Positions 1 through 31,574 of a stretch of DNA of 42,149 nucleotides are shown piece after piece. The position numbers and the translations under genes were made by a program. This stretch comes from a virus. Lineage: Duplodnaviria > Heunggongvirae > Uroviricota > Caudoviricetes. Within the stretch, counting starts at the first letter, position 1, and each line of letters starts with the position of its first letter. Below the pieces are notes generated by a model. That model was not told where the DNA came from. It ran no database searches and saw nothing but the letters and a program-made list of their open reading frames with translations. The stretch lies in the IMG/VR virus record IMGVR_UViG_2541047883_000004. One strand, 5' to 3'.

Positions 1-2586
<2,586 letters not shown>

Positions 2587-2589
2587 TCA

Positions 2590-3237
2590 TCAGCGACCAA
2601 TCACCACAACCTGACCACCATCCCCTTCGTCTGCCGTGCTGATCTCCTGAGAGACCACCCGCGACCCCACGCGCATTTCACCGTACAGAACGGGCAGAAC
2701 ATTGCCCTGGGCAACCATGTTATCCAGTGAGGAGAAATAGGTGTTCTGTTTGCCGTTATCTGTACTTGCTGCCGTGGGCGTCCTGGCTTTCGGTGCCAGC
2801 ATCTGCGCCACTCCGCCCAGGATCATACTGGCCCCTGCCGCATACATACCCGATACAGCCGCGGCTCCCAGCCAGCCCACAGGGTTCCACCATGCCACCG
2901 CAATCAGCGCCGCCCCCAGCACCACCTGAAACACACCGCCACTTTTAGCTCCCGCCAGACGCGGCACGATGTGGATCACGGCACCATTTGCCAGCGGCTC
3001 ATTAAGACGGGCAGACAATTCGGTTTCACCGGCATCACGCCCGGCAATGCGTACCTGGTACCAGCCGTCGCTCAGTTTCTGACGAAACGCCGGGATCTGC
3101 ATGGCCAGCGCCCGGATGGCTTCGGACCCCGTTTTCACTCGAAGGTCGATGCGGCGGCCAAATCGTTGTAAATCCCCGTAAAGGCAGATGCGTGCCATGC
3201 CCGGTGACGCCAGAGGGAGTGTGTGCGTCGCTGCCAT
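2590..3237 (-). CDS. I: Tail assembly protein I
   Basis: 215-aa translation (MARICLYGDLQRFGRRIDLRVKTG ... GQVVVIGR) matches lambda gpI as recalled. Its stop overlaps the J start (ATGA). Confidence 0.9.
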   Translation of the reverse strand: MAATHTLPLASPGMARICLYGDLQRFGRRIDLRVKTGSEAIRALAMQIPAFRQKLSDGWYQVRIAGRDAGETELSARLNEPLANGAVIHIVPRLAGAKSGGVFQVVLGAALIAVAWWNPVGWLGAAAVSGMYAAGASMILGGVAQMLAPKARTPTAASTDNGKQNTYFSSLDNMVAQGNVLPVLYGEMRVGSRVVSQEISTADEGDGGQVVVIGR

Positions 3238-3878
3238 TTGTCGGTATACCTCTCTCGTTTGCTCAGTTGTTCAGGAATATGGTGCAGCAGCTCGCTGTCA
3301 CCACAGTAAATGGCGGCATGATTCGGCACCGATGAACCAAAACAGCACAGCAGCACATCGCCCGGCTGCGCCGCTGACAACGGCACCTGATACAGCCCTG
3401 TGGCCTCCAGATTATCCAGATAGAGATTCTGACCGTTACGCCACCAGTCATCCTCGCGATGAAAATCCGGCATCTCAATCCCCGCCAGATGGTAAGCATC
3501 CCGGAACAGCGTGTAACAGTCCGTCACCCCGTGCTCAAAGCGCCGCCCGGAAAGATGTGGCACACAGCGGAACTTGTGAATCGCTCCCCGGCAAACCAGC
3601 CACCACGGCAAATCACTCTGCACCTGCAGCCGCCGGTCGGTCTCACTCAGCCAGGGCATACCACCGGGGTGGCTGTGGACCAGCGCCACAATCTCACCCT
3701 GCATCTCTGCCCGCAGCCAGTCCTCCGGCGACATCCGGAAATACTCCTCCGGCTCACCGGAGATATTCACGCAGGGAAAATATCTTTCCCCCTCCGGTGT
3801 TCTCACCACGAAGCCGCACGACTCCGCTGGCGCACATCGCCGGGCGTGCGCCAGAATCGCTGATTCTGTCTCTGTCAT
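3135..3878 (-). CDS. K: Tail assembly protein K (JAB/MPN plus NlpC/P60-type)
   Basis: 247-aa translation with HSHP metal motif and conserved Cys/His; sits in the lambda K position between L and I and overlaps the I start. Confidence 0.8.
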   Translation of the reverse strand: MTETESAILAHARRCAPAESCGFVVRTPEGERYFPCVNISGEPEEYFRMSPEDWLRAEMQGEIVALVHSHPGGMPWLSETDRRLQVQSDLPWWLVCRGAIHKFRCVPHLSGRRFEHGVTDCYTLFRDAYHLAGIEMPDFHREDDWWRNGQNLYLDNLEATGLYQVPLSAAQPGDVLLCCFGSSVPNHAAIYCGDSELLHHIPEQLSKRERYTDKWQRRTHSLWRHRAWHASAFTGIYNDLAAASTFE

Positions 3879-3883
3879 GGGAT

Positions 3884-4582
3884 TTACTGCGAAAGTTTGT
3901 TAATGGAAAGGAAGCCGCCAAAGTTGCCGACATTATTGCGGAACTTACAACCACTCAGGCATTTGCTGCATTTATCCTTCGTGATATCGGACGTCGGCTG
4001 GTCATATTCATCCGCGACCGCCGGACCGTGATAACCGCACTCATCACCGCGATAGGTCCAGGTGCAGGTATTAGCCAGCATGATGCGCCCCGGAAAAACA
4101 GCACCGTCCGTTTCCGTCGGCGTGGACAGTACAAAAGAGGCACTGACCGCGCTCAGTTCGCTGCACTGCTCGATGCGCCAGCGGCTGATCACCTCCTGCT
4201 CCGGATCGGCGTCACTGTTTCCGTTGACGAAGTTCACCGCATCCAGAAAACGGGCGTAAACCTTACGCCTGACCACCGTTCCGCCGACCAGACTCTGCAG
4301 GTCTTCCGCCATCCCGGTGACCATTCCGTGCAGGTTAGAAACCGTCAGTGTCGGACGGGCAGCACTGCCCTTGCCGTTCAGTTCAAATCCCGTCCCCTGA
4401 ATGGGGTATGCCTGATACTGCCGCCCCTGCCAGGTAACCGGCTCACCTTTTTCGTTCTGCTCATTACAGAAAAAATAACGTTCACCACCGACCTCTGTCA
4501 GATCGATTTCCCAGAGCACCACCTGGGCTGACTGAGTGAGGCGTGTCGTCTCATGATGTGTTTCCTGTGGAATATCCTGCAT
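3884..4582 (-). CDS. L: Minor tail protein L
   Basis: 232 aa, same length and position as lambda gpL; Cys cluster near the C-terminus. Confidence 0.85.
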   Translation of the reverse strand: MQDIPQETHHETTRLTQSAQVVLWEIDLTEVGGERYFFCNEQNEKGEPVTWQGRQYQAYPIQGTGFELNGKGSAARPTLTVSNLHGMVTGMAEDLQSLVGGTVVRRKVYARFLDAVNFVNGNSDADPEQEVISRWRIEQCSELSAVSASFVLSTPTETDGAVFPGRIMLANTCTWTYRGDECGYHGPAVADEYDQPTSDITKDKCSKCLSGCKFRNNVGNFGGFLSINKLSQ

Positions 4583-4591
4583 CAGAGCCTC

Positions 4592-4921
4592 CTATGCCAC
4601 GACCTGTTCAAAATCTGCCGTTATGGTTACCCACAGCGCCCCCACGCTTGCCGACCATTTACGACAAACCACCCTGATCGGTTTCCAGTCATAAGGTGGC
4701 GTCCACTGAAATGCACGGACGCCACCGTGCCGTTCCAGAAAGGCTTTTAAAGATGGGTGTTCACATTTACGAACACGTATCGTCACGCTGTAAGTCGACA
4801 ACTGGTTATTCAGTCCCGCCGCACGACGCTGTTCATAACCATCGTCCAGCTTCACTGTCACCACTTTCGGCTCTGATACCACATTCATATCCGGGCGCAC
4901 TTTCCAGTGAAACGTCTCCAT
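4592..4921 (-). CDS. M: Minor tail protein M
   Basis: 109 aa, lambda gpM length and position; the start overlaps the H stop. Confidence 0.85.
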   Translation of the reverse strand: METFHWKVRPDMNVVSEPKVVTVKLDDGYEQRRAAGLNNQLSTYSVTIRVRKCEHPSLKAFLERHGGVRAFQWTPPYDWKPIRVVCRKWSASVGALWVTITADFEQVVA

Positions 4922-6172
4922 TACCGATATGCTCCACTTAACCGACCACCATCACGGGCCTGCTGTTGCATAAAGTCCGCTGCCGCTTTTTTCCCGAGGT
5001 CATAAACCGCCTTCAGGGCAGCCGGACCTATCTGCCCGTTCGTGCCATCGTTATTGATCTCGATGTTGTACTGCGGGGAAAACATCGCCATACCTGAACC
5101 CCCAATATCCGCCACAACCCCCAGCTTACCGTCAGCACCACGACGCAATGGCAGAATGGCTTCAGGTCCCGCTTCCCCCATCACACCCGCGCCTTTTGCA
5201 AAAGCAAAAAACGTCGGACGGTTAACCACCGTGCCACTGTAACGACTCAAATCAGCAGACTGATAAATCCCCCCATTGGCATTCAGGGAAAGGCTGCTGA
5301 GATCAAATCCCAGTACACTGCCAATCCCTTTTATCGATTTCATCATGGTTGCCTGCGCCAGGATTTTCGCCATATCTGACAGCACAGAAGAGGTGAAGGA
5401 TTTGAAATTGAGTTTGCCGGTAGTGACAAAAGTTGCCAGGCCATTTCCCATGTTGCTGAAGGCTGACGAGAACACCTGTTCTGCTGTTTCTGCCGTATTA
5501 TCTGCATCCACGGTAAAATCCTGAAATGCACGCAGGACTCCGTTTTTCCAGTTACCCTGCACAACTTCAAGCTGTTGCCAGTAACGGCGATTCTCATTCA
5601 GTTGTCGGTTCAGGCTCTCCGTCAGCGCCTGCTCGGCCTTTCTGTAGTCATCCGTGTTATATGTCCCTTTCTGCTCACTATCCCGCCTCAACTGCTCCAG
5701 CTGTTGCTGGTATTTCTGGCGAAGACTCAGTTGTACCTGATATCGCTGTCGCTGCTGATCACCCATACCCACCGTGGCGATATCCAGGTCATGTTGCTGA
5801 CGCTGAGCGCGCTCTTCTTCAGCCAGTTGACTGGTCAGCTGAATTGTTTTTTTCTTCAGCTCGTTGAGTGCCGTCTGTTTCTGAAGCTCCTGCTGTTTTA
5901 CATCCAGCAGCGTCAGTGCCTGAATCAGTTCATCTTTACGGGCCAGCACACTCTTTTCATCTGCCGTCAGTTTTTTCCCGTCCAGGTCGCTGATGCGCTG
6001 CTGCAGAGCCAGGAGCTGTTTATGCGCTTCTGTCATCCTTTCCGTGGCAATGCCTGCTGACTGTCTGGCAGCAGCAATCTGTCCTTCCACCTGTGCCTGT
6101 TGCTGACTGTACTGCAGCAATAACCGGGTGGCCTCATCATTACGGGTTTCGCGTGTTTTTTTCTTACCGGAT
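4921..6172 (-). pseudogene. H: Tape measure protein H, C-terminal fragment (split by IS insertion)
   Basis: The frame stays open upstream of the ORF-finder start up to the IS junction (... GKKKTRETRNDEATRLLLQYSQQQ ...). The C-terminus (NNDGTNGQIGPAALKAVYD ... RDGGRLSGAYR) resembles the lambda gpH C-terminus. Confidence 0.85.
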
Positions 6173-6265
6173 TATGAGACGACAATAACTCAGTCCGCCT
6201 GGCGCCGATTATTCTGGCCGGTTTTGTAACCTGAGTGTCATTTACATGATCCAACAGGAAATGGC

Positions 6266-7765
6266 GTGACGCTCAATACTTCTCAGGTCAGTTACTATAT
6301 GACTCAGCGTAAGAAAGGTATAACTCAGCATATCTCGGCCATGAAGGCTGGTATCTCAGTCCGTTCTGGTCGTCGGATCGAAAAAGGAGAGTGGGCAAAA
6401 AACAGTGTTCGGCACTGGCGCACACGCAAAGATCCTCTGGAAGCTGTGTGGGACAGCATGCTTGTTCCTCTGTTGAAAGAGAGGCCGGCTCTGACACCAA
6501 CAACTCTGCTGGAGATGCTACAGGATAAATATCCCGGCCAGTACCCCAACAGCCTTCGAAGAACAATGCAACGGCGGGTCCGCGAATGGAAGCTACAGTA
6601 TGGTGCAGAGCAGGAGGTCATGTTCCGCCAGCGACATCAGCCCGGTCTGCGAGGTCTGTCGGACTTTACTGAACTGAAAGGTGTAGTTGTCACCATCGCC
6701 GGTAAGTTGTTGGCGCATAAGTTGTATCACTTCCGTCTGGAATGGAGCCACTGGAGCTGGATGCGGGTTGTGCTGGGTGGTGAGAGCTTCTCTGCTCTGG
6801 CTGAAGGTCTGCAGGAAGCCCTCGGACAACTGGGCGGAGTGCCGGTAGAACATAAAACGGACAGCCTGAGGGCAGCATGGAAACAACAGGGCGAAGATGG
6901 ACGCCGCGAGCTGACTGAGCGTTATGCTGCTCTCTGTCAGCACTACGGAATGCAGGGCGTACACAATAATGCCGGTCGGGGCCACGAAAATGGCTCGGTT
7001 GAAAGTGCCCACGGACATCTGAAAAGGCGTATCTGTCAGGCGCTGATACTGCGGGGCAGTAACGACTTCAGCACCATAGAAGAATATCAGGCCTTCATCA
7101 CTCAGCAGGTTATGCGGCACAACCGTAACAATCAGGATCTGGTCAAGGAAGAACGTCTTCATCTGAAACCGCTGCCGCTTCGTCGCAGTGCTGACTATGA
7201 TGAGCTGACTGTGAGGGTTAGCCGCAGCAGTACCATCAATGTGAAGCACGTCGTCTACAGCGTACCTTCCCGGCTTGTAGGTCAACTGTTACGGGTCCGG
7301 TTATGGGACGATCGTCTGAGCTGTTACGTTGGCAGCAGCGAGGTCATGAGCTGCCCACGTGTCAGACCAGAAAAAGGGAAGACGCGGGCCCGTCGTATCG
7401 ACTTCCGACATGTGATCGACAGTCTGGCAAAAAAGCCCGGTGCGTTCTGCCATGCAACGCTGAGAAATGACATCCTGCCAGACGATGAATGGCGGAGGCT
7501 GTGGCGTCGCTTATGTAATCATCTGGAACCCGACATGGCAGGCAGGCTGATGGTACATGCTCTGAAACTGGCTGCAGGATACGACGATATCTCAGTCGTG
7601 GCAAAAGGTATGGAGCAGATGCTGAATACCCCGGGAAACGTGGATCTGCACCGGCTGATGCGCTTCCTGGGTATAAAGGAAAAGGCGTTGCCGGTAGTCA
7701 ATGTGAAACAGCATAACCTGAGCAGTTATGAGCAACTACTGCGTGGCAAGGGAGGTTCGCAGTGA
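6266..7765 (+). CDS. istA: IS21-family transposase IstA (GTG start)
   Basis: 499-aa translation with N-terminal HTH and an integrase-type catalytic core; immediately followed by an overlapping istB, the typical IS21 arrangement. Confidence 0.85.
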   Translation: MTLNTSQVSYYMTQRKKGITQHISAMKAGISVRSGRRIEKGEWAKNSVRHWRTRKDPLEAVWDSMLVPLLKERPALTPTTLLEMLQDKYPGQYPNSLRRTMQRRVREWKLQYGAEQEVMFRQRHQPGLRGLSDFTELKGVVVTIAGKLLAHKLYHFRLEWSHWSWMRVVLGGESFSALAEGLQEALGQLGGVPVEHKTDSLRAAWKQQGEDGRRELTERYAALCQHYGMQGVHNNAGRGHENGSVESAHGHLKRRICQALILRGSNDFSTIEEYQAFITQQVMRHNRNNQDLVKEERLHLKPLPLRRSADYDELTVRVSRSSTINVKHVVYSVPSRLVGQLLRVRLWDDRLSCYVGSSEVMSCPRVRPEKGKTRARRIDFRHVIDSLAKKPGAFCHATLRNDILPDDEWRRLWRRLCNHLEPDMAGRLMVHALKLAAGYDDISVVAKGMEQMLNTPGNVDLHRLMRFLGIKEKALPVVNVKQHNLSSYEQLLRGKGGSQ

Positions 7766-8517
7766 GCAATATCCATCACCTTGAACGCAGCCTGCGTAAA
7801 CTACGCCTGACACGAGTTGGAGCTGAATGGCACGCTCTGGAAAAACGAGCACTGGCAGAAGGCTGGACACCATCGCGCTATCTTCTGACGCTATGCAATG
7901 AAGAACTCCTGTGGCGCGAGAGTGAAAAACTGCGTCGTTATAAAAAGGAGGCCCGGTTGCCAGTTGCCAAAACGCTAAGCGAATACGACTTCAGTCAGGT
8001 GCCGGAACTGAATGGAGCTCAGTTCCGGCAACTCTGTGAAACGACAGACTGGGTTGATGCAGGAGAAAACGTTCTGCTGTTCGGAGCCAGCGGGTTGGGG
8101 AAAAGCCATCTGGCGGCAGCGATCGTGGATGGCGTAGTAGGCCAGGGCTACCGGGCCCGGTTCTACAGCGCAGGAGAGTTGTTGCAGGAACTACGTAAAG
8201 CCAGAGCGCAGTTGAAACTGAATGAGCTGCTACTGAAACTGGATCGCTACCGGGTGATAGTGGTGGATGATCTTGGCTATGTCAAACGCGACAGCGCCGA
8301 AACGGGAGTACTGTTCGAGTTAATAGCGCATCGCTATGAACGTGGGAGCCTGGTGATAACCAGTAACCATCCGTTCAGCATGTGGGGCAGCATCTTCGTG
8401 GATGAGACTATGGCGGTGGCGGCGGCAGACCGGCTGATCCATCACGGATATATGTTCGAACTGAAAGGTGAAAGCTACAGGAAAAAGACAGCGAAGGCAG
8501 TAACAAGCGCGACTTGA
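7762..8517 (+). CDS. istB: IS21-family ATP-binding helper IstB
   Basis: 251 aa with Walker A (GASGLGKSH) and Walker B (VIVVDDLGY); start overlaps the istA stop. Confidence 0.85.
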   Translation: MSNIHHLERSLRKLRLTRVGAEWHALEKRALAEGWTPSRYLLTLCNEELLWRESEKLRRYKKEARLPVAKTLSEYDFSQVPELNGAQFRQLCETTDWVDAGENVLLFGASGLGKSHLAAAIVDGVVGQGYRARFYSAGELLQELRKARAQLKLNELLLKLDRYRVIVVDDLGYVKRDSAETGVLFELIAHRYERGSLVITSNHPFSMWGSIFVDETMAVAAADRLIHHGYMFELKGESYRKKTAKAVTSAT

Positions 8518-8582
8518 TGTCGCACTGAAGGGTGCGGCCAGTATAGTTGGCGCGAGTCGGCAAAACTAGTTGACGTCTAATA

Positions 8583-10402
8583 CCGGATGCCAGGGCTTTC
8601 TCGTAACGTTCATTTTCACGTTGTATCGCCGCATCCCTGACAGCCTGATCGGCGTACTGCATGGCATTAATACGCGCAATTTCACGCTGATGTCGTGCAG
8701 CTTCCGTTTCATTCATCCGGTTCAGTGCAGCATTTTCAGCATTACGGCGTTTCTGTTGCTCCTGATAATTCCGCTCTGCCTGCTCTTTTGCATCCTGCAA
8801 ATCCTTCTGGCGTTTTTTCTCCTGAAGATCGTTAAGACGCTGCTGATCGTATTCAACCTGAGAAGATGATGCCGTCCAGGGGAGTCTTTTCGCCCGCGAC
8901 ACTTTCTCCTGCAAAGTGGCAATCTGCGCATCCAGCGAATCTTCACGACCAATATTCATGGCCGCATCCCAGAACTGCTTCCACCAGTCAGACAAAGTTT
9001 GCAGCGTACTGCCCAGCGCATTGAGGTTATTATCAATATCCGCAGTACGCCGACCGGTTTCCTCTGCCAGTGCAGACATGGCTATCCGTGCCGCATCACT
9101 GGACCGCCCCTGCTCTCCAAGGACGCGTATCTGCTCAAGCTGAGTGGCAGTAAGAAAATGCAGCTCATTGTCCAGAGACTTCGCGGCATTTACAGGATCA
9201 TCCTTCAGCCGCTTAAACTGATTTATGGTATCGCTGACCGACTGGCCAACCGATCGCTCCATCTGTGCGGCAGCTCTCGCCACCATACCGATATCGTTTC
9301 CACGAAATGCACCACTCCCCACCACCTGAGCCAGCGCACCGGCTGCAGCATGTTGCGTGATACCATTCCCGGAAATAGCACGACTGAGCGTCCACAGCTG
9401 CCCGGCAGTGACTCCGGCATAATGCCCCGTCAGCGACAGCTGGCGGTTAAATTCTTCCCCCTCCTTCTGACCGTCATACCAGGCTTTACCCAGACCATAG
9501 ACGGCCGCGGTAATACCGCCAATAACCCCGCCCAGCATCATGCCTTTCGGTGACATCAGTGTGTCTATCCATCCGGCACGGTTAGCCAGCGTTATCCCGG
9601 ATCCCCTCAGCGCCCCTAAATTGCCGCGGGCCAGTTCACCTATCAGAACGCCTATCTCCTGGCGGGCCGCTGCACTTTTCAGACCCAGCGAATGCGTGGC
9701 TTTTCCTGCCCGCTCCATTTTGCGGATATACACTTCTGCAGCACTGCTTACCCCCAGCTGGGCAGCCCTGGCACGAAGCAACTCAGAAGAAGAAAGATTC
9801 TGGCGGGTTGCCTGCTCTTTAAGCTGACGGATAAACGCCACTTTCTGTCGGGTAGCCTCTGCCTCAGCCTGCGTAAGAACACGGGTTTTCGCCGTAACCT
9901 CAGAAATCAGCGCCAGATAATCCTGCTGACCAATCCCGCCACTGTTTCTGGCCTGTCGGATCTGCTGCTGAATACGCTGTAATTCCTGCAGCCCCGCACT
10001 GGCCTGTTTCACACTGTCAATCTGACGATAAAACGCAGCAGCCGCTTTATCCTGAGCCTCCGCCAGAGCGATGGCCTGCGCCTGTTCCTCGCGCATTTTC
10101 TGGCTCAGTGCCTCCATGCGCTGGCGGGTTTTCTCCACCTCGCGGGCCATGCGTTCATGAGCCTGTGCGTTCTTCTCCACCGTCTGCGCATGGACGGATG
10201 CGGCTGTTGCAGCCGAAGAAGCTGCCTGCGTTGTCTGCCGGGCGGCCTGAGTCTGACGCTCCATAAAACGCTGCATACGGGCAGAAGACCGTTCTGCATC
10301 GCTGGCTGCACCATTCAGAAGGTTTTTGATACGGGGAATTTCATTTTTAAACTCTGCCGCATCAATCCCCAAATCAATGACCAGGTTGGCTATCTGGTCC
10401 AT
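8583..10402 (-). pseudogene. H: Tape measure protein H, N-terminal fragment
   Basis: Start MDQIANLVIDLGIDAAEF at 10402 with SD GGAGGTG. The frame reads ... ERYEKALASG up to the IS junction; the ORF-finder tail beyond 8583 is IS sequence read through. Confidence 0.85.
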
Positions 10403-10703
10403 AACGCACACCTCCGGAAATACCTTCCCCAAGATGCATCAGTTCTTCGTCCGTTCGCTCCGGTATCCCGTTCTCTTCCGGTAAAAGGCTGAAATCAGCC
10501 ACCGCAGCATCACTGCTGCCGGACACCATTCTCACGATCAATGCCTTCAGCGAGGCAAACTGCGCATCCATCCACACATCACTGAAGCTCTGCATCCGGA
10601 AATAATCGCCCCACTCACCAAGCTCAGTGGCCGACATTTCCGACAGCATCCGCCGCCAGTCTGCCCGCCGGAACTCCCGGGCAAGCCGCATGACAAACTG
10701 CAT
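10374..10703 (-). CDS. T: Tail assembly chaperone T segment, expected to be made as a G-T fusion by -1 frameshift
   Basis: This ORF is in the -1 frame relative to G and is open across the G 3' end. Position and arrangement match lambda G/GT. Confidence 0.65.
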   Translation of the reverse strand: MQFVMRLAREFRRADWRRMLSEMSATELGEWGDYFRMQSFSDVWMDAQFASLKALIVRMVSGSSDAAVADFSLLPEENGIPERTDEELMHLGEGISGGVRYGPDSQPGH

Positions 10704-10711
10704 TTCCCGCG

Positions 10712-11101
10712 TCAGGACTTTTCCGGCGTCAGCGCCTCATGCTCATCATCCACGGCATTATCAATGGCCCCCATACCGCTCAGCGACAGAACCATCTCCG
10801 CCCCCGCACCCAGGGCATCATACGACCATGTTGTAATAACGGATGCGCAAAGCGTCTCTACATCCTTAGACTGATCCGCATTCCACAGTGAGCGGGAAAC
10901 CAGCCAGGCATTGATATCCATCCCCATCCGCAGAAAAGCAATCTGTCGTTCAGCCTCCGGCAGTTCTCCCTCCACGGCATCAAACTTTGCCGTTCGCTGC
11001 TGAACAAACGTCAGATATTCAATTCTCTGCAGCCCGGACAGCTCACTGAGCACCACGGACTGTTTTTCATAATTAAACGTGTCCTGTTTCAGAAACATCA
11101 T
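10712..11101 (-). CDS. G: Tail assembly chaperone G
   Basis: Start MMFLKQDTFNYEKQ with SD GGTGGAG. Lambda G position between V and T/H. Confidence 0.75.
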   Translation of the reverse strand: MMFLKQDTFNYEKQSVVLSELSGLQRIEYLTFVQQRTAKFDAVEGELPEAERQIAFLRMGMDINAWLVSRSLWNADQSKDVETLCASVITTWSYDALGAGAEMVLSLSGMGAIDNAVDDEHEALTPEKS

Positions 11102-19915: not shown

Positions 19916-20089
19916 AAGCAACTCCATCTGGCAGGTGAAAATCAGGTTTATTTATATATTTCAATTAATTGCAAACTGGTCTAATGACAGGAAGAAAAAA
20001 ATATTGTACAGGTGAAAAGGGAAATAACTTTTAATTATCAATAAATTACCAAACATGCTGCCGCCGCCATGGAAATGCAAAAACTAGCC

Positions 20090-20125
20090 TTTTTCCGCGA
20101 CGCTCCCGCCCCGTGGCAGGGCCCC
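20090..20125 (-). other. Cohesive-end site cosN (lambda-like)
   Basis: Minus strand reads CACGGGGCGGGAGCGTCGCGGAAAAAGGC, against lambda cosN TACGGGGCGGCGACCTCGCGGGTTTTCGC as recalled. An A/T-rich cosB-like spacer (19928-20090) separates it from the nu1 start. Confidence 0.6.
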
Positions 20126-20477
20126 CCACTGGGAGGACCCGACAGCCTGACAACCGTGACGAGCATCTTTAACAGAGCTTTACATAATGGCATGGGGATA
20201 ATTCAGAAGGACATCACAGCATGCCCACACAAATTAGTGTGAGTGTCCTGTTTCTTACTACGCGCAGGACTGACGAGCATGAGGGGAAAATACGAGAACC
20301 GAAATGCCTTATCTTCAGAAATGCAGCCGGCATCCGAACTGGACGATATTGTAAATTCACCTAAATACGAGGCATTGCTGTAGTTGAATTGCATTGCTGT
20401 ATTAGCCTGACAGTGACAGAATACGATATTGACTCTGTCACTTGTGAAATGGTCAGAATGGTTAGCAGTTATGGTGA

Positions 20478-20684
20478 TCAGTCAACCACCAGGGAATAAT
20501 CCTTCGTATTCTTATCGTGCTTTACTAACGCGGCCTCAATTGCCCTGAATGCTTCCAGAGACACTTGATGTTCTATACATGCAATTACAACATCCGGGTA
20601 ACCCATCGAAATGGTGCTATTAAGCATAGTTTTTACACGAACCTGCTCCTGGGAGGGGGCATCAGTGTATTGATCTTTATGCAT
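20478..20684 (-). CDS. Hypothetical small protein near cos
   Basis: 68-aa ORF only; no recognised motif. Confidence 0.3.
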
Positions 20685-20977
20685 TTTGTCGCTCCATGCG
20701 TTTGCTCTTCACTTACGGCTAAAAATATAACGTCAAATCACTCAGCATGAAAGAGTTAAAGATTCAGCGCGTTTCCCTTACATAATCTGTCGTTTGTATT
20801 CTCATCAGGCATACCGGAAAGACTAGGTATTGTCACACAACCAATACCATCGACAATCGAGATTTATACCTATTCGGTAATGTTTAAATATAACAAAACC
20901 CCGTAAAAACGAGGTTTATGGGTAATTTGTATTGTTGAATAGCATCTGATGAGAAATTGATGCTAATACTAAACAGA

Positions 20978-21151
20978 CTAGATTAAATCAATCTTGATAT
21001 CATAGCTTTCAAGACCAGTCATTTTTTCCCGTGCAGTAAACTGGATACTGGTAACTTCTTTCCCGGTCTTTTTCTTAAGCTCAATGATTTTTTTTGTTAT
21101 ATATTCAGAAATATCTGCTTCTGTTTTTGTTTTTAACTCTTCAATGTTCAT
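20978..21151 (-). CDS. gnsB: GnsA/GnsB-family protein
   Basis: 57 aa MNIEELKTKTEADISEYITKKIIELKKKTGKEVTSIQFTAREKMTGLESYDIKIDLI, near-colinear with E. coli GnsA/GnsB as recalled; SD GAGG. Confidence 0.7.
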   Translation of the reverse strand: MNIEELKTKTEADISEYITKKIIELKKKTGKEVTSIQFTAREKMTGLESYDIKIDLI

Positions 21152-21323
21152 CATTTCCTCTTTTAGTCTGTTATGACTTTCCTGGTACACAGTAGTGTCA
21201 ATTATATGGAGCAAACGTATAAAAGATAAGATGAAACATCGCAATAATCAACATACGACGGTCTAAATTTCACACAAACAGATAAAGATGATTATCATTT
21301 ATTATCAATGCATTAGAATCAAA

Positions 21324-21554
21324 TCAATTCAAGAGTCTCATTGCTGCTTCCAGAATTTCTTCTGAAGTTACATGTCGATCCGCTGCTACATAAATGATTT
21401 TATGATCTCCGGTCAGAGATGGAAACCCTGCAGCCATTACAGTGAGGTGTGTTGTTTCGCCATTTGGATATTCACGCATGATGGTGTTAACTCCGGTCAT
21501 CACTGGCACTACCATTGCTGGTTCAGAGTTAAAAAAAACTATTATTTTTTTCAT
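21324..21554 (-). CDS. Small conserved prophage protein (YnfN-position)
   Basis: 76-aa ORF in the slot occupied by ynfN in Qin-like gene order (csp - ynfN - gnsB). Identity not verified. Confidence 0.4.
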   Translation of the reverse strand: MKKIIVFFNSEPAMVVPVMTGVNTIMREYPNGETTHLTVMAAGFPSLTGDHKIIYVAADRHVTSEEILEAAMRLLN

Positions 21555-21592
21555 AATGTTACCGTATTATGTGAGTATCCATCGACTAGACA

Positions 21593-21621
21593 CTAAGAAA
21601 AAAAGCTCCCGAAGGAGCCTT
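21593..21621 (-). terminator. Rho-independent terminator after the csp unit
   Basis: Minus strand reads GGCTCC-TTCG-GGAGC followed by TTTTTTTCTT. Confidence 0.6.
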
Positions 21622-21626
21622 CATTT

Positions 21627-21842
21627 TCACTTTCTTAAATCTAACGATAGACGGCTAACATTTAAGTATTGTGAAATATTATCAAATGTAATCATCATTG
21701 ATTTACAAAAGATACATTTTGCCCCGAAAGGATTCCTGTCAGAAACATCAAAAGATGATGTTCTATACTGAGAACCATGGCAACACGGGCATCTAAAGTG
21801 AATATGGTTTGTAATATTATCTACCTCAAAGTGCCACAACAT
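21627..21842 (-). CDS. Possible zinc-ribbon small protein (CPCC ... CIFC)
   Basis: ORF with four Cys in ribbon spacing, ending directly before the terminator. It overlaps the csp 3' end, so the start is uncertain. Confidence 0.3.
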
Positions 21843-22038
21843 GAACAGCCGCGGGGCCTTTAGGTCCGTTCTCAATACCAAATTCGACTTCCTGATTCTC
21901 AGTTAACGTTTTGAAATCGTTGCTCTGAATAGCTGAGAAATGGACAAACACATCTTTGCTACCATCTTTCGGCGTGATGAAACCAAAACCTTTTTCAGGG
22001 TTAAACCATTTCACTAAACCAGTCATTTTGTTAGACAT
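21826..22038 (-). CDS. cspI: Cold-shock protein, CspA family (CspI-like)
   Basis: [38 protein letters not shown] ... with RNP1/RNP2 motifs; long AT-rich 5' leader (22042-22400) typical of csp genes. Confidence 0.8.
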
Positions 22039-22401
22039 CATTATTACCTTTTGAAGAAGTTAGCCCTTGGGCAGAATGGTCCGAAAAAAAATATCAGAGA
22101 GAAAAACCAACAAGGAAATCTCAAGAGGTACAAATAATAAAATTATAACAATGACTGCTTCAGATAATTTTGTAACAAACCAGAACACCATTAACGCATG
22201 ATTAACCAACCATAGCAAGGATTACTTTTGTAAAGAAAAACACACGAATGAAACAATAGCTTTATTTATTAATAAAACGTGTCATTCTGTCTAATGACCT
22301 TTTATCTTACCCTTAAGATTTCAAGGATTTTGACTCATGGAAGAGTCCTTTTTATTTAAATTTCACATTCAGCGCTAAAAATAATCCGATTTAATATTAA
22401 T

Positions 22402-23429
<1,028 letters not shown>

Positions 23430-23542
23430 GGATATTTATCAGGATTTATCGGCTTCAAATCCCCGGATATGTTAAATCTTACCTCACCAGTGATGGGCAC
23501 TGGCGGGAGGAGGATGTCAATCTGATAAACACAGAGGCGACT

Positions 23543-23803
23543 ATGGATTACACAAATCTACCTAAACAAACTTTTGCTGATTTAATCGCACTCAGGCAAG
23601 CAGTCGTAGCTCTAATCAACTTGTTGCCGGAGAAGGAAAAGGAATTAGTTAAAGCGCTTCTTAACAGAACTGCCGCCGATTTTTCATCATATCCACTGAC
23701 AGATGACCTTGCGGACCTTCCTGAATTAATTGCAGCGTCCGCCAATAAGCTTACTGAAGAGATTTACCCTCCTCAAAAATCTTCACAAAATTCCTGCGAG
23801 TAA
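23543..23803 (+). CDS. Hypothetical acidic helical protein, antisense to the late operon
   Basis: 86-aa ORF with SD GAGG; convergent with, and overlapping by about 50 nt, the 190-aa minus-strand ORF. Confidence 0.3.
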   Translation: MDYTNLPKQTFADLIALRQAVVALINLLPEKEKELVKALLNRTAADFSSYPLTDDLADLPELIAASANKLTEEIYPPQKSSQNSCE

Positions 23804-24302
23804 CTTCAATGCAATAATCGTAAAACGCCGCAAACTGCTCATCGCGGCGTTTTTTTTCATCTTCAGAAGGAATCAGCACCGACAATTTTTTATTCAGATC
23901 AGCGACGCTGCCCTCCAGTTTTTCAATGGGCGATTCAATATCATCTTTTTCTGACCGCAATGCCGTCGGTGGCGTCTTCAGAGAACCAGTAATTCTTCCC
24001 GGTAGCTTTCCTTTGTAGGTTATCCACACATTCTGCGCCTCTAAAATTATGGGGCGCTTTTCCGGCGACTGCTCATCCCCTTCACATAACCCGGCAGCAA
24101 CATCCAGGAAGACCTGTCTGATGCTCCTTCTGGCTGCTGCCTCATAAAACTCCAGCGCGGCACCTTCAACACGGTCCAGCGAGATGTCCAGGTCAAAAAT
24201 TTCACCGTCAAAGTGTTTTTTGTCCCGTAAGGCTACAGTTACCGCCACTTTATTCTCAAAATTGCGAACTCCTTTCACAACCAGTTCATAGTCTTGAGTC
24301 AT
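23751..24302 (-). CDS. Hypothetical protein inserted between holin and endolysin
   Basis: About 183 aa from MTQDYELVVKG; the ATG lies 5 nt after the holin stop. Acidic, no TM segment, no motif I recognise. Confidence 0.5.
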   Translation of the reverse strand: MTQDYELVVKGVRNFENKVAVTVALRDKKHFDGEIFDLDISLDRVEGAALEFYEAAARRSIRQVFLDVAAGLCEGDEQSPEKRPIILEAQNVWITYKGKLPGRITGSLKTPPTALRSEKDDIESPIEKLEGSVADLNKKLSVLIPSEDEKKRRDEQFAAFYDYCIEVTRRNFVKIFEEGKSLQ

Positions 24303-24306
24303 TGGA

Positions 24307-24522
24307 TTACTCTCTTCTCGCAACCTTACGCCTGTCTTCTTTAATCTTGAAATAAAGGTTTGTCAGATACGTCAGCATGCCAAATACCAGACTACCCAAT
24401 ACACCTATTGCCGCCCACTGTGAGGGCGTGACTTTATCGAGCAACTGTAAAAACCAGTAGCCAGCACTGCCTGCAGAGGTGCTGTAGGCGATGCCCGTTG
24501 TTAACTTATCCATGGATTTCAT
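24307..24522 (-). CDS. S: Class II holin / pinholin (phage 21 S-like) with dual-start motif MKSM
   Basis: 71 aa [71 protein letters not shown], near-colinear with S21/EssD as recalled; SD GGAGGTG. Confidence 0.85.
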
Positions 24523-24613
24523 AGCCTCACCTCCGCAGATAACGGATGGTGTACACGGTTTGGTTCGAAGAAGGAAAGAAGTTACATTAGCGTAAGGCCC
24601 GAACATCTATTCA

Positions 24614-24646
24614 AAAAGAAAAACGCCAGCAATTATTCTGGCGTAG
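24614..24646 (-). terminator. Rho-independent terminator after the AraC-family gene
   Basis: Minus strand reads CGCCAG-AATAATTG-CTGGCG followed by TTTTTCTTTTT. Confidence 0.55.
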
Positions 24647-24712
24647 CTAAAAATATCGTATAATCTTACACTTCAAAAAATAACTTTATAAAATGCCATC
24701 ACATCATATCTT

Positions 24713-25426
24713 CTAAGAAAATCTTGATAAATATTGGTGCGGAGGCACACCAAAATATCCTCTAAAAACACTTACAAAATATGATGCATTGTCATACCCG
24801 CATATTCCCGCCACCTTGCCGACAGTATGGTTACTGTAGATCAATAATCTTTGCGCCATCATCATTCGTTCTTCAAGAATTAATTTACTAAACGATAATC
24901 CTTCGTCTTTTAATTTTCTTTTTAACAAACTCTCGCTCATATATAATCTTGAAGATATATCACAAAGTCTCCATGACGCTGAGATATCCGAGTGAATAAT
25001 AGCCTTAACTTTACAACCTAAGCTATTAAGACTTCCGAACAAAAAACTTTGCACTATTTTCTCTGAAGATAAGACAGCAAGACATGCAAGTGATATTTGA
25101 TTTCTAACTACATCCACGGTTTTGCTATCACAATTCAAGCATGCAACCAAGTTCCTTAACAATGAAAAATCTTCACATTCTACTATCAAGTATGACGGAT
25201 AAAACCTTCTTACAGAAAAAGGTGAGAGTGTGTAGTTTTTAAAGAAATCATTAACTGTTTTCTCCTCAACATCTACGATCATTAGATGATCTGTATTTGA
25301 CGAAAAAAGATCTTTTAAATTGTATTCGATGAGGACAGCACTTCCTTTTTTAAACAAAATATCTTCTTTACCAATTCGGACACCAAACGAGTTCAACACC
25401 AAAATGACAGAACATATGTATGGCAT
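24713..25426 (-). CDS. AraC-family transcriptional regulator (AppY-like)
   Basis: N-terminus MPYICSVILV resembles AppY (MDYVCSVVF) as recalled; C-terminal AraC HTH (... GICGYDNASYFVSVFRGYFGVPPHQY); SD GGTGG. AT-rich codon usage. Confidence 0.8.
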   Translation of the reverse strand: MPYICSVILVLNSFGVRIGKEDILFKKGSAVLIEYNLKDLFSSNTDHLMIVDVEEKTVNDFFKNYTLSPFSVRRFYPSYLIVECEDFSLLRNLVACLNCDSKTVDVVRNQISLACLAVLSSEKIVQSFLFGSLNSLGCKVKAIIHSDISASWRLCDISSRLYMSESLLKRKLKDEGLSFSKLILEERMMMAQRLLIYSNHTVGKVAGICGYDNASYFVSVFRGYFGVPPHQYLSRFS

Positions 25427-25832
25427 ATTATCCACCTGATATCACTGGGGTTACACCAGGTAAGTATAGGTGGAAAATCAATATTCGCCAGTTCAACAAT
25501 AAGGAAAATCTCATTGCATCACAACTATAAAACCATGTGTTTAACTCACAAAAAACAAATCATTAAACTAATCTGTTATATTATAATAGCTGCGTGCAAT
25601 AATAATATTATATACTCTTAATATTCACTTGAAATATCTTCATATAAAAACAGATTGAATAAAATCTTTTGGGGCTGGTATGTTTACCAACATTAAATTG
25701 CATCTCAATGTTTTCTTCAGCGTGAACAGGATTTTTATACAAACTGACACTATGGGTATCATAGTGTAGTTTTTACGATTGTAAATATCCTGCATACAGG
25801 AACTCATCACTTTCAGATGATATCGCATACAG

Positions 25833-26792
25833 TTAATTCACCATCAGTCTTAGAGCCAGTTCTTCCGGATAGGGATCGAAGTAATTCTGTGTAAGCAAGT
25901 AATCATTAGGATACTCACCCAGATAATGCTTCAGCAGAGTCAACGGCGCAAGAAGAGGCAATGTGCCAAAGCGATAGTTAAGTATAACCTCGGTCAACTC
26001 TTTACGCTGGCGTGTACTTAAGTAATTACTAAAATACCCCTGTATATGCATCAGCACATTCGTGTGATTTTTACGTGATGCAGGTTTTCTGAGAATCGCC
26101 ATCAGCTTATCACGATACACCTCAAAGTATGATTCAAGGTCCGCCCACTCGTGTATTGCAGCCACAAATGGTCCCATATCTTTATAGCCTGCCTGACTAT
26201 GCGCCAACAACTGAAGCTTATAACGACTATGAAAAGCTAATAACTCTCTTCTTGATAATTTCTCCTTGTAAAGGTGATTGAGCTCATGCAAAGCAAAAAC
26301 TCTTTCAACAAAATTCTCACGAAGCACTGGATCATGTAATCGCCCATCCTCTTCAACCGGTAGCCAGGAAAACTTTTCCATCAAAGTGCTCGTAAATAGT
26401 CCCACTCCATCTTTACGACCTCGATTACCATTTTCATCATAGACACGCACGCGCTCCATGCCACAGCTGGGAGATTTAGCACAAACCACAAACCCCGATA
26501 CATCCTTTAATTTGTGCATATAAGAACGACTAAACTCTGTCATTCTCTCTGTCACATCCTCATTCTGGTCGTGGCTGAAACACATCCGTATATTTCCTTG
26601 CTTCGAGCGCACAAGACGTAGAGCAGGACGCGGAACTGGCAGCCCTATAGCCATTTCCGGACATACTGGTCTGAATGTTACCCATTCCACTAATTTGTCC
26701 ATTAAAAAGTCAGCTCTTTTGTGACCACCATCAAAACGAACAGCAGAACCGGCCAAACAACCGCTGATTCCAATCACAGGTTTTTTTATCAT
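25833..26792 (-). CDS. DUF523 (TudS-like Fe-S) plus DUF1722 fusion protein
   Basis: N-terminal GISGCLAG, VCPE and SPSCG Cys pattern as in DUF523/thiouracil desulfidase proteins; the C-terminal half is DUF1722/YbgA-like; SD GGGAGG. Confidence 0.65.
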   Translation of the reverse strand: MIKKPVIGISGCLAGSAVRFDGGHKRADFLMDKLVEWVTFRPVCPEMAIGLPVPRPALRLVRSKQGNIRMCFSHDQNEDVTERMTEFSRSYMHKLKDVSGFVVCAKSPSCGMERVRVYDENGNRGRKDGVGLFTSTLMEKFSWLPVEEDGRLHDPVLRENFVERVFALHELNHLYKEKLSRRELLAFHSRYKLQLLAHSQAGYKDMGPFVAAIHEWADLESYFEVYRDKLMAILRKPASRKNHTNVLMHIQGYFSNYLSTRQRKELTEVILNYRFGTLPLLAPLTLLKHYLGEYPNDYLLTQNYFDPYPEELALRLMVN

Positions 26793-26984
26793 ATCCTCCC
26801 CCTTGACTAATTCATTAACACATAAACTGTGTAGTGCACGGAATAAATTGCCTTTCTGACGTCATCACTGACAATTTTTCTGTTATGGACTATTCCTAAT
26901 ATAGTATGAAAGTTCTTTAAGTGATCGGTCGTAATCATCTATCTTTCATACTTACTCTCAACTATCAAAAGTACAGGATTGATT

Positions 26985-27509
26985 ATGAAGTTATGGCCTG
27001 TGTTGACTGGCATTGCACTCTCTTTCACTCTTATAGCATGTAAGGCCCCGACACCACCTAAAGGTGTGCAGCCGATTACAAATTTTGACGCCAACCGCTA
27101 CCTCGGAAAATGGTATGAAATAGCTCGCCTCGAGAACCGGTTCGAACGTGGTCTGGAGCAGGTCAGCGCTACTTATGGAAAACGGAACGACGGAGGGATT
27201 CGTGTACTTAACCGTGGATACGATCCAACGAAAAATAAATGGAGCGAGAGCGAAGGTAAAGCATACTTTACTGGAGATACTAAAACTGCAGCGTTGAAGG
27301 TTTCGTTTTTTGGCCCCTTCTATGGTGGCTATAATGTAATCAAACTGGATGATGAGTATAAGTATGCTCTTGTTAGTGGTTCGAACAGAGAATACCTATG
27401 GATTCTGGCAAGGACCCCAACTATTCCAGATAAAGTAAAAGCAGACTATGTGCGAACCGCTCAAAAGTTGGGATTCAATGTCAATGAATTATTATGGGTT
27501 AAACAATAA
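26985..27509 (+). CDS. blc: Outer-membrane lipocalin Blc homologue
   Basis: Lipobox LIAC; motifs NFDANRYLGKWYEIARLENRFERG and KVSFFGPFYGGYNVI match E. coli Blc as recalled; SD AGGA. Confidence 0.85.
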   Translation: MKLWPVLTGIALSFTLIACKAPTPPKGVQPITNFDANRYLGKWYEIARLENRFERGLEQVSATYGKRNDGGIRVLNRGYDPTKNKWSESEGKAYFTGDTKTAALKVSFFGPFYGGYNVIKLDDEYKYALVSGSNREYLWILARTPTIPDKVKADYVRTAQKLGFNVNELLWVKQ

Positions 27510-29495: not shown

Positions 29496-30641
29496 TTATT
29501 TTTGTTTTATGGTAAATGAAATAACATTGTCAGAATGAATCATATCTGATTCTTTAAATCGTGTAATTGCAGATAACTCATTTAAGGGAAGAGCAAAGAT
29601 ATCAGTTAACTCAGTTACCTTTATGATTGAATGCTTATCAAGAAGTAAAAGTAACTTATTAAGTAACTCAGGCTCTTCTTTTGGGATTGCATCATCTAAC
29701 GGCTCCCTACGATGGAATGGCGCTAATTGCTTAAATATATAGCTTTTCTGATTATCGCTGATTAACTTAAGGCTATGACTCCTCATGGCAATACTACCGA
29801 TAGATGTAATCCAACGTAGTTTTAATCGTTCTAACGCTGATAAATTTGGACTATAAAATTCACGCCCGAAAGTGGTGGCTGGCATTAAAAAGCTGGAGGC
29901 AAAATAATCGGCCTGCAACTCCACCAGGTCGAATAATTCTTTATCATTCAGGTAGTCATCCTCCACTGCCCTATGCATAATTAAATGGCCAAGTTCATGA
30001 GCAAGACTAAATCGCATGCGAACAGCCGTCTTCGAGCTATCTAACATAATTAAAGGCCGCCCATTATGCCAGAACGAAAAGGCATCAACTTTCTCACCAG
30101 AAGGTAAATGAGAAACCACGATTCCTTTATTTTCAACAAGTCTAGTTAAATTGAGTATTGGACCATCACCTAACCCCCAAAAACGCCTTAATTGGGTGGA
30201 CATATCCTCAATATCAGATAGAGACAGAACCTCAAAATCAATAATATCGAATTCAGGCAGAACCACATCTGGTAATTGAGCATATTTTAGACATTCATCC
30301 AATATTAATGCCGCCCAACGCCCACGTGTTTTCCCTGTAACTCGAGCCTTTTTGGTCGCAGTTGAACGACTTCTAAAATGAATCGCCCCCTCCAGAGATG
30401 GAGAAGCACTGGAGGCTAAGAAAAATCGTTCTGGAAATCCTAACACCTTGGCTATTGCAGAAAGTGTATCAGCAGAGGGAGACTTCAACCCCTTCTCAAA
30501 TGACGAAATAGCTTGTCTTGAAATATTGAGCACTCTGGCAAGTTCAGCCATCGTCAACCCTTTTGCCTCTCTTGCCTCCTCAAGGCGACGAGGATTAAAC
30601 GATTTATCAGTAAATGGTGTTTGTGCGATATTCATGCTCAT
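29496..30641 (-). CDS. XRE-family HTH fused to ImmA/IrrE (M78) zinc metallopeptidase
   Basis: N-terminal HTH (GLTMAELARVLNISRQAISSFEKG); HExxH motif HELGHLIMH with downstream ELQADYFASSF typical of ImmA/IrrE. The ATG overlaps the stop of the upstream gene (ATGA). Confidence 0.8.
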   Translation of the reverse strand: MSMNIAQTPFTDKSFNPRRLEEAREAKGLTMAELARVLNISRQAISSFEKGLKSPSADTLSAIAKVLGFPERFFLASSASPSLEGAIHFRSRSTATKKARVTGKTRGRWAALILDECLKYAQLPDVVLPEFDIIDFEVLSLSDIEDMSTQLRRFWGLGDGPILNLTRLVENKGIVVSHLPSGEKVDAFSFWHNGRPLIMLDSSKTAVRMRFSLAHELGHLIMHRAVEDDYLNDKELFDLVELQADYFASSFLMPATTFGREFYSPNLSALERLKLRWITSIGSIAMRSHSLKLISDNQKSYIFKQLAPFHRREPLDDAIPKEEPELLNKLLLLLDKHSIIKVTELTDIFALPLNELSAITRFKESDMIHSDNVISFTIKQK

Positions 30642-31252
30642 GATTGCTGTGATTTAATTATTTGTTCGGTAAGAATCTTGATTTTATCTTCAATCTCAGA
30701 ATCCACATTTTCTGCTTCAACTTCTACCATCGTCATAATTGGTAAAGACTCAGTATAAAGAATCCCGTAATTATCCGAAGAAGGAACAGTTAAATTCAGT
30801 TTGGACAAGTGCTGATTACTGCCATCATGTAACATATAAACATGTCCACCAGACGCTCTCCCATCCAGGGAGTCGGCATTTTCATCCCCAAAATTCAATT
30901 CATAATTTTGATTAGCGTAAACAGCTCTATACAATGCCTGCTTAGGAAGTGGCGCATTACCCGATAAATGATGTGCCGTCATTTTCCAGTTGTTCGAGTG
31001 AATCGCAATGTGTTTACAATTTTTAGCAGCATTGCTACCGACTTCAAAATCCAGCCCCACACGCTTAGCCGCATTCTCAAGCAATGCATCGGCATAAAAC
31101 CAGCGCAAATATGACTGTGCTTGAGCCCAAAAAGAACCAAACTCTTTTGCCTTCATATGCGAATGAAGATAAGCCTGTGCTAACGCGATCGAAAGCTCTT
31201 TGCGGCACTCCTTGTCATATGCTTCTAACAACTGTTGAGATAAATTCTGCAT
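30638..31252 (-). CDS. Hypothetical 204-aa protein, first gene of the cassette
   Basis: ORF with SD AAGGA and its own candidate promoter (TTGACA boxes at 31270-31310, minus strand). No TM segment or motif I recognise; AT-rich codon usage. Confidence 0.6.
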   Translation of the reverse strand: MQNLSQQLLEAYDKECRKELSIALAQAYLHSHMKAKEFGSFWAQAQSYLRWFYADALLENAAKRVGLDFEVGSNAAKNCKHIAIHSNNWKMTAHHLSGNAPLPKQALYRAVYANQNYELNFGDENADSLDGRASGGHVYMLHDGSNQHLSKLNLTVPSSDNYGILYTESLPIMTMVEVEAENVDSEIEDKIKILTEQIIKSQQS

Positions 31253-31418: not shown

Positions 31419-31574
31419 TTACTCCTCAGGTTCGTAAGCTGTGAAGACAGCGACCTCCGTCTGGCCGGTTCGGATTCGTACCTCGCAGAGGTCTTTCCTC
31501 GTTACCAGTGCCGTCACTATGACGGTTAAACAGATGACGATCAGGGCGATTAACATCGCCTTTTGCTGCTTCAT
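31419..31574 (-). CDS. hok: Hok-family type I toxin
   Basis: MKQQKAMLIALIVICLTVIVTALVTRKDLCEVRIRTGQTEVAVFTAYEPEE, colinear with Hok (... [28 protein letters not shown]) as recalled. Confidence 0.85.
   Translation of the reverse strand: MKQQKAMLIALIVICLTVIVTALVTRKDLCEVRIRTGQTEVAVFTAYEPEE

Follow-up and report, generated by a model that had tools for sequence, protein, structure and literature searches.

The window analysed here is a stretch of 42,149 nucleotides (IMG/VR record IMGVR_UViG_2541047883_000004, Caudoviricetes), which comes from the scaffold-level draft assembly GCA_000460315.1 of E. coli, with N gaps nearby. It contains a prophage located at the rspB/ynfA (Qin-type) site of the chromosome. 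Pfam matches of the neighbouring genes and the annotation of the identical prophage of Ecol_316 give the lambda gene order V-G-T-H-M-L-K-I-J, in which gene H, coding for the tape-measure protein, is interrupted by an insertion sequence (IS; Table 1). A brief scan for a slippery heptamer like that of the lambda G/T pair found none of the motifs tried.

Table 1. Features of the interrupted tail region, with positions counted from the first nucleotide of the window
Feature	Position	Strand	Characteristics
Tail gene M	4592..4921	-	directly downstream of H; PF05939
H, C-terminal fragment	4921..6172	-	residues 606-1021 and stop; TMP_4 (616-693), lambda tape-measure C-terminal domain (811-885)
Target-site duplication CCGGAT, left copy	6167..6172		junction sequence and comparison with other copies
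ISEc10 (IS21 family)	6173..8582	+	2410 bp; 100% full-length identity to many E. coli copies, PGAP-annotated as ISEc10
Left terminal inverted repeat of IS	6173..6220		48-nt arm, 71% complementary with 8535-8582
istA, IS21-family transposase, 499 aa	6266..7765	+	NF033546, 227 bits; coordinates correspond to WP_000174402.1 of annotated copies
istB, AAA+ helper ATPase, 251 aa	7762..8517	+	PF01695, 209 bits; NF038214, 266.7 bits
Truncated H ORF as encoded, 664 aa	8408..10402	-	607 native residues, then 57 IS-derived residues, then stop
Right terminal inverted repeat of IS	8535..8582		48-nt arm, partner of 6173-6220
Target-site duplication CCGGAT, right copy	8583..8588		junction sequence and comparison with other copies
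H, N-terminal fragment	8583..10402	-	codons 1-606 and first two bases of codon 607; TMP_2 (residues 228-426)
Tail assembly chaperone gene T	10374-10703	-	directly upstream of H; PF06894 / PF06223 (G/T pair), Ecol_316 prophage annotation
Tail assembly chaperone gene G	10712-11098	-	upstream of T and H; PF06894 / PF06223 (G/T pair), Ecol_316 prophage annotation

The two parts of gene H

Gene H begins with an ATG at 10402 and ends with a stop codon at 4921-4923, as the initial annotation had placed it, and the IS is situated in codon 607 of 1021. That annotation had also claimed that deletion of the IS together with one flanking repeat restores the reading frame. Removal of positions 6173-8588 indeed yields a single ORF of 1021 amino acids reading ...ERYEKALASGKKKTRETRNDEATRLLLQYSQQQ... 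across the junction, exactly as claimed, and every residue of this product agrees with WP_001587081.1, the protein annotated as tape measure in Ecol_316. The reconstructed protein matches the profiles PF06791 (167 bits), PF24622 (61 bits) and PF09718 (78 bits). Both its domains (TMP_2, TMP_4 and Tape_meas_lam_C) and the position of its gene, between the G/T chaperone genes and M-L-K-I-J, are those of lambda-type gpH-like proteins.

The N-terminal fragment shows no difference from the H gene of Ecol_316. Its frame continues into the IS, where the antisense strand of the right end encodes the 57 extra residues (IRRQLVLPTR...PPPPP), and exactly this 664-aa product was called as a gene in GCA_000460315.1. 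The C-terminal fragment is devoid of its own start codon at the junction; the earliest start available in its frame is the TTG at 6120. Since the ATG of M overlaps the stop codon of H (TAATG), M and H may be translationally coupled.

Identity and termini of the inserted element

All 2410 of 2410 bp of the IS match copies annotated as "IS21-like element ISEc10" in CFT073 and in many other genomes and plasmids, and hundreds of copies with 100% identity are found in E. coli chromosomes and plasmids. The name ISEc10 rests on the PGAP annotation of these identical copies. ISEc10 of CFT073 and of many ST131-type genomes and plasmids has the same termini, the same istA and istB products (WP_000174402.1 and WP_000065240.1) and the same predominant 6-bp target duplication as the element described here, and the insertion site alone differs; in CFT073, the copy sits in a genomic island near agn43, outside any prophage.

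The element had been read as a member of the IS21 family carrying istA and istB, located at 6173-8582 and flanked by CCGGAT on both sides, and each part of this description is borne out. The two genes follow each other on one strand, istA preceding istB, with the GTG start of istB overlapping the TGA stop of istA (GTGA), and both proteins score above the curated NCBIfam cut-offs (160 bits for NF033546, 200 bits for NF038214). Imperfect terminal inverted repeats enclose 2410 bp, within the size of about 2-2.7 kb typical of the family, and the duplication CCGGAT falls into the family range of 4-8 bp. Ends of the form 5'-TG...CA-3' are a common, non-universal feature of IS21 elements, a tendency that does not define the family. 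They are absent in all 11 copies compared, which have the termini 5'-TATGAG... and ...CTAATA-3', with TG only at positions 3-4 of the left end.

The left end starts at 6173 with TATGAGACG and the right end closes at 8582 with ...CGTCTAATA. Identical first and last bases are present in 10 independent, 100%-identical copies from other genomes and plasmids, while the flanking DNA is different each time. Direct repeats around these copies are mostly 6 bp long (7/10), the remaining three being 4, 5 and 7 bp. The probability that a 6-bp match occurs by chance at fixed positions is 1/4096. In the window the repeat looks like 8 bp (TACCGGAT) only since the last two bases of the IS are TA; an 8-bp duplication around an IS of 2408 bp was considered and rejected, the terminal TA belonging to the IS according to the other copies.

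A "2,530-bp ISEc10 insertion" has been described in the afa promoter (PMC8764528), whereas 2410 bp separate the duplications in every copy measured here. De novo insertions of ISEc10 beside lpp were selected in the laboratory in CFT073 (PMC7482066), in support of ISEc10 being a known and currently active IS and, indirectly, of catalysis by IstA and target capture through IstB.

Uninterrupted homologues and the age of the insertion

The initial annotation had called for an alignment of the H flanks to intact homologues, and in intact homologues the flanks are contiguous. A reconstructed empty site of 1200 bp is present, ungapped and with 100% identity, in at least 19 complete genomes, and at least 80% of this query is covered in 1826 genomes, always under the annotation "phage tail tape measure protein". 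Seventeen phage records match the empty site in one piece at 97-99%. Phage PhiR40_1 aligns on both sides of the IS with adjoining coordinates, their overlap being only a single TACCGGAT. The H genes of mEp460-like lambdoid phages (mEp460, cdtI, Ayreon, PhiR40_1) are 97-99% identical to the reconstructed one at the DNA level across the junction, and their gpH proteins share the TMP_2 / TMP_4 / Tape_meas_lam_C architecture and the gene order G-T-H-M. WP_001587081.1, encoded in the Ecol_316 / THO-008 prophage, is likewise uninterrupted. Unlike all of these, H in the window is split after codon 607.

The junction between H and the IS is present in none of the 5426 complete E. coli genomes searched, and exact junction searches gave no match in GTDB species-representative genomes or in JGI metagenome contigs. 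The rest of the window is nearly the same as the Ecol_316 prophage beside rspB, with 0 differences in 33,561 bp on one side and 11 in 6172 bp on the other. Judged from the missing junction and this near-identity, the insertion is recent and strain-specific. Its recency had been proposed before, and the perfect duplication, the reconstructed H free of secondary mutations and the identity of the IS with other copies agree with it. The 100% identity of the IS says less about recency than it seems to, because in a draft assembly the IS interior may be a consensus of several copies.

The sister prophage of Ecol_316 harbours its own ISEc10 in lom, a dispensable gene, about 7 kb from the H site and in the opposite orientation. 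This copy has identical IS sequence, is flanked by a 6-bp duplication CTGCCG and is likewise confined to a single genome (1/5426). At the lom site, the source genome of the window has no insertion; the H and lom insertions are therefore independent events. A local hop from the lom copy within the same prophage was rejected on the same grounds, the lom insertion being found only in Ecol_316.

Probable consequences for the prophage

We propose, with a probability of about 0.92, that a single simple transposition of ISEc10 into H of a lambda-like prophage accounts for the locus, with a truncated H and failure of tail formation as the probable outcome. In this event, a 2410-bp copy of ISEc10 entered codon 607 of H and duplicated the 6-bp target CCGGAT. 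From established knowledge of the IS21 family, the DDE transposase IstA would perform the integration, and the AAA+ ATPase IstB would select and prepare the target DNA. The prophage would then yield only the 664-aa truncated H (607 native and 57 IS-encoded residues), without TMP_4 and the lambda C-terminal domain.

In phage lambda, the tail initiator cannot form without gpH, which also sets the tail length. Since gpH is needed for the initiator, neither tails nor infectious particles would be expected upon induction, which should lead to DNA-filled heads and cell lysis; by analogy with lambda genetics, the virus is almost certainly unable to build tails. Q-antiterminated late transcription probably reads through the IS into M-L-K-I-J. 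A terminator scan inside the IS found 8 sites (5.2 +/- 2.4 expected from shuffled sequence) and is evidence neither for nor against polarity, because the sites are no more numerous than in shuffled sequence. With such read-through, the main defect would be the loss of full-length H, possibly together with reduced M, as the start of M may be coupled to the stop of H, rather than transcriptional polarity.

The remaining modules had been noted as apparently intact with respect to head, lysis and regulation, and this view stands at the level of ORFs and domains. Full-length profile matches were obtained for terminase, portal, protease-capsid fusion, Z, U and V; for holin, lysozyme and an Rz-like protein; for Q, a CI-like repressor (HTH and S24 domains) and a CII-like protein; and for the replication initiator and integrase. 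The initiator, an early protein of 358 amino acids, is full length by PHROGs and has no Pfam family. Gene J reaches an assembly gap at position 1 of the window. Because only 843 codons of J precede this gap, the prophage may carry additional defects, or may already have been defective when the IS arrived.

The latter possibility leads to a reading in which the insertion is real but functionally irrelevant: it would reflect neutral decay of a cryptic Qin-site prophage that was already defective, and would not be the event that inactivated it. The gap that hides part of J speaks for this reading, and so does the near-identical prophage of Ecol_316, in which a YdfR-family gene and the side tail fibre gene are annotated as pseudogenes and lom has an ISEc10 of its own. 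Lom and side tail fibres are, however, dispensable in lambda, all ORFs of the window with an essential lambda-type role in head, tail, lysis, regulation, replication or integration are full length, and the structural module is collinear with deposited phage genomes (PhiR40_1, mEp460, Ayreon, Tritos) at 95-96% identity. We regard this reading as unlikely, though it is the one deserving most weight among the alternatives. It is far less probable that the assembler placed the IS into H through a collapsed repeat or scaffolding error and that H is intact in the strain. In the scaffold, GCA_000460315.1, N gaps interrupt J and lom at a distance of only a few kb, and ISEc10 is multi-copy in related strains, occupying up to 22 places per genome; yet both junctions are resolved, with a perfect 6-bp duplication at the exact ends seen in 10 other copies, a chimeric join or mis-join would create no target duplication, and the gene-caller products on the scaffold agree exactly with the window.

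Just as improbable is a truncated H that still supports tails, perhaps shorter ones, in an infectious prophage. The length of a tail follows that of its tape measure, and lambda H genes with in-frame internal deletions produce tails that are shorter but functional; the tolerated deletions, however, retained both ends of the protein. Here all 414 C-terminal residues are gone, and with them TMP_4 and the conserved C-terminal domain of lambda tape measures (811-885), and 57 unrelated residues are added. Very little weight is likewise given to a selected "locking" of resident prophages, whereby ISEc10 would repeatedly hit their structural genes and make them non-transmissible while cargo (DicF, hok/sok, cold-shock genes) is still expressed, or to a gain of function by the 664-aa H fragment. 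The prophage targets of ISEc10 cited for locking are H of the window, lom of the Ecol_316 prophage and, in other strains, J as well as portal and baseplate genes.

The transposition of ISEc10 into H is an ordinary, well-understood case of already known biology, and its importance beyond annotation is small. In annotation, the two H fragments are to be treated as one pseudogene interrupted by ISEc10. Predictions of inducible phages for the source strain should count the prophage as probably defective in tail formation and still competent for lysis. The H::ISEc10 insertion could be used as a strain-specific marker, and it presents a clean, datable case in which an IS now active in extraintestinal E. 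coli lineages has inactivated a prophage.

Structure and identity of the insertion

The tape-measure gene H of this lambda-like prophage is split by an insert of 2410 bp, whose left boundary (6172/6173) reads ...TTCTTACCGGAT/TATGAGACGACAATAAC... and whose right boundary (8582/8583) reads ...GACGTCTAATA/CCGGATGCCAGG.... Its termini are imperfect inverted repeats of 48 nt with 71% complementarity, and the two ORFs which it contains share a GTGA overlap. As the initial annotation had claimed, removal of the insert together with one copy of the flanking CCGGAT (6173-8588) brings H back into frame: the minus strand then carries a single ORF of 1021 codons that opens with ATG at 10402, ends with the stop at 4921-4923 and has the junction ...ERYEKALASGKKKTRETRNDEATRLLLQYSQQQ.... 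The target duplication covers codons A605-S606-G607 of H.

The reconstructed protein is identical at each residue to WP_001587081.1 from Ecol_316 (NZ_CP018957.1), an E. coli strain carrying a near-identical sister prophage with intact H, and H lies among its neighbours as in lambda (V, G, T, H, M, L, K, I, J). When the empty site was rebuilt as a 1200-bp query, at least 19 complete E. coli genomes had it with 100.0% identity and no gaps; at query cover of at least 80% it is found in 1826 genomes, where the annotation is always "phage tail tape measure protein". It is also matched in one piece, at 97-99%, by 17 phage records, PhiR40_1, mEp460, cdtI, Ayreon and Tritos among them. In PhiR40_1 both arms of the window align at adjoining coordinates, the sole overlap being a single TACCGGAT. 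Flanks of H are thus contiguous in intact homologues, and a non-contiguous arrangement, which was looked for there, was not found.

Many E. coli chromosomes and plasmids carry copies that are 100% identical to the insert from end to end, and plasmids of Klebsiella and Shigella match it as well. Identical copies are labelled by PGAP as [quoted passage not shown]. Assignment to the IS21 family with istA and istB holds, as both proteins exceed their NCBIfam cut-offs (IstA, 227 bits on NF033546, cut-off 160; IstB, 266.7 bits on NF038214, cut-off 200); IstB also matches Pfam IstB_IS21. The ends were set empirically from ten identical copies at differing sites (a CFT073 island, a Tn3 transposase gene, flhC, a HEPN gene and others). 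Every one of them starts with TATGAGACG and finishes with CGTCTAATA between unrelated flanks, and the direct repeat measures 6 bp at seven of the ten, the remaining three having 4, 5 and 7 bp; this confirms the proposed boundaries and the duplication of 6 bp. An 8-bp repeat (TACCGGAT) is only apparent, because the terminal TA belongs to the IS itself.

ISEc10 is matched in 899 of 5426 complete E. coli genomes, with at least 80% of the element covered in 526. It is demonstrably mobile: new insertions adjoining lpp arose in CFT073 under laboratory selection (PMC7482066), and ST131 strains carry it in the afa promoter region (PMC8764528). The latter paper gives an insertion length of 2,530 bp, whereas every copy measured here has 2410 bp.

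Features of the prophage and of the insertion
Feature	Position	Strand	Remarks
ORF, 499 aa	6266-7765	+	inside insert
ORF, 251 aa	7762-8517	+	inside insert
TMP_2 domain	residues 228-426		reconstructed H protein
TMP_4 domain	residues 616-693		reconstructed H protein
Lambda tape-measure C-terminal domain	residues 811-885		reconstructed H protein
cspA-type thermoregulator 5' UTR	21780-22196	-	upstream of cspI; Rfam, above gathering score
sok antitoxin RNA	31569-31743	-	adjoins hokD; Rfam, above gathering score
DicF sRNA	37343-37394	+	Rfam, above gathering score
Head			full-length profile matches: small terminase (DUF1441), large terminase, portal, ClpP-protease/capsid fusion, decoration protein
Tail			full-length profile matches: FII-like protein, Z, U, V
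Lysis			full-length profile matches: holin, lysozyme, Rz-like protein
Regulation			full-length profile matches: Q, 212-aa CI-like repressor (HTH plus S24), CII-like protein
Replication/integration			full-length profile matches: replication initiator, exonuclease, integrase

Age and origin of the insertion

Looking up the exact sequence of the truncated H product traced the window to scaffold KE701670.1 of the E. coli draft assembly GCA_000460315.1 (NCBI), with which it is identical. The junction of H and IS occurs in none of 5426 complete E. coli genomes, and an exact-sequence search found no match to it in species-representative genomes or metagenome contigs. Once the 2416 inserted bases are taken out, the window aligns collinearly with the prophage that adjoins rspB/ynfA in Ecol_316. 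From the N-terminal part of H to the integrase there are no differences in 33,561 bp; the other arm has 11 substitutions in 6172 bp, none in H, which change one amino acid in J and one in M. All 11 fall in the J-to-M tail-tip arm (window 1330-4845), and this clustering suggests a small recombination patch or a mosaic boundary.

The perfect duplication, the lack of secondary mutations in H and the occurrence in a single genome together point to a recent, strain-specific insertion; a recent date agrees with the initial annotation. The 100% identity of the IS is by itself weak evidence of recency, since a draft assembly may present the interior of a multi-copy IS as a consensus. Both junctions are resolved and carry the duplicated target, which is strong evidence against a mis-join.

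The sister prophage of Ecol_316 carries an identical ISEc10, but in lom, in opposite orientation and with the duplication CTGCCG (3767-6176 of the retrieved NZ_CP018957.1 stretch, about 7 kb from the H site). This insertion occurs in Ecol_316 only (1 of 5426 genomes). The source genome of the window has no insertion at the lom site, so the two insertions are independent hits on one prophage type. Elsewhere, genes annotated at ISEc10 ends include those for host specificity protein J (strain 06-00048), a baseplate assembly protein (MS 21-1) and a portal protein (HSP60); such placement beside prophage structural genes could reflect target preference or mere tolerance of insertions.

The finding is real and its earlier reading correct, and the event is an ordinary one. 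ISEc10, the IS21-family mechanism, the H allele and IS-mediated prophage inactivation in general are already known; new is this insertion allele alone, already contained in a public draft assembly.

Remaining modules and accessory regions

Head, lysis and regulatory modules had been described as apparently intact, and full-length profile matches bear this out at the ORF level. The exception is J, whose integrity is obscured by a gap: only 843 of about 1131 codons are present, since the window begins right beside a run of N that lies within the gene (KE701670.1; gap at 20404-20903 of the retrieved stretch). A second gap breaks lom. The repressor ORF of 212 aa (35419-36057, +) has HTH_3 and Peptidase_S24 domains and seems to be a complete repressor of CI/LexA type; for the identical sequence of Ecol_316, PGAP calls just its C-terminal 112 aa, probably a start-site miscall.

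The lambdoid prophage, apparently full-length and located at rspB/ynfA, contains Qin-type cargo RNAs. Window 20000-27500, which separates the terminase genes from Q, has a GC content of 34-47%, against 52-59% in structural genes, and resembles a moron or cargo region; it holds cold-shock genes, gnsB and ynfN beside the lysis genes, an AraC-type regulator (24713-25435), a YbgA-family gene and a lipocalin gene. The interval from the Q region to hokD encodes a 381-aa protein (29496-30641, -), with N-terminal HTH and an IrrE/ImmA-type M78 peptidase domain, and after it a functionally uncharacterised protein of 204 aa (30638-31252); the two might form an accessory regulatory or defence pair.

Expected consequences for tail assembly

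The N-terminal H ORF reads on through 57 codons of IS antisense sequence before a stop, giving a product of 664 aa in which TMP_2 is retained but both TMP_4 and the lambda C-terminal domain are missing. For the C-terminal 414 residues the junction supplies no start codon; an in-frame start first occurs as TTG at 6120. Late transcription passes through the IS from right to left, antisense to istAB, and a scan of the IS showed terminator-like sites not in excess of shuffled sequence. As Q-modified polymerase ignores terminators in lambdoid phages, M-L-K-I-J are probably still transcribed past the IS. Translation of M might be reduced, because its ATG overlaps the H stop (TAATG).

A less likely reading is that the IS landed in a prophage already cryptic. 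For loss of H itself, lambda provides the precedent: its tail initiator needs gpH together with J, I, K, L, G/GT and M, and H-defective infections yield active heads and no tails. By this analogy the insertion would be expected to result in tailless, non-infectious particles with normal lysis, as the initial annotation had anticipated for tail assembly.
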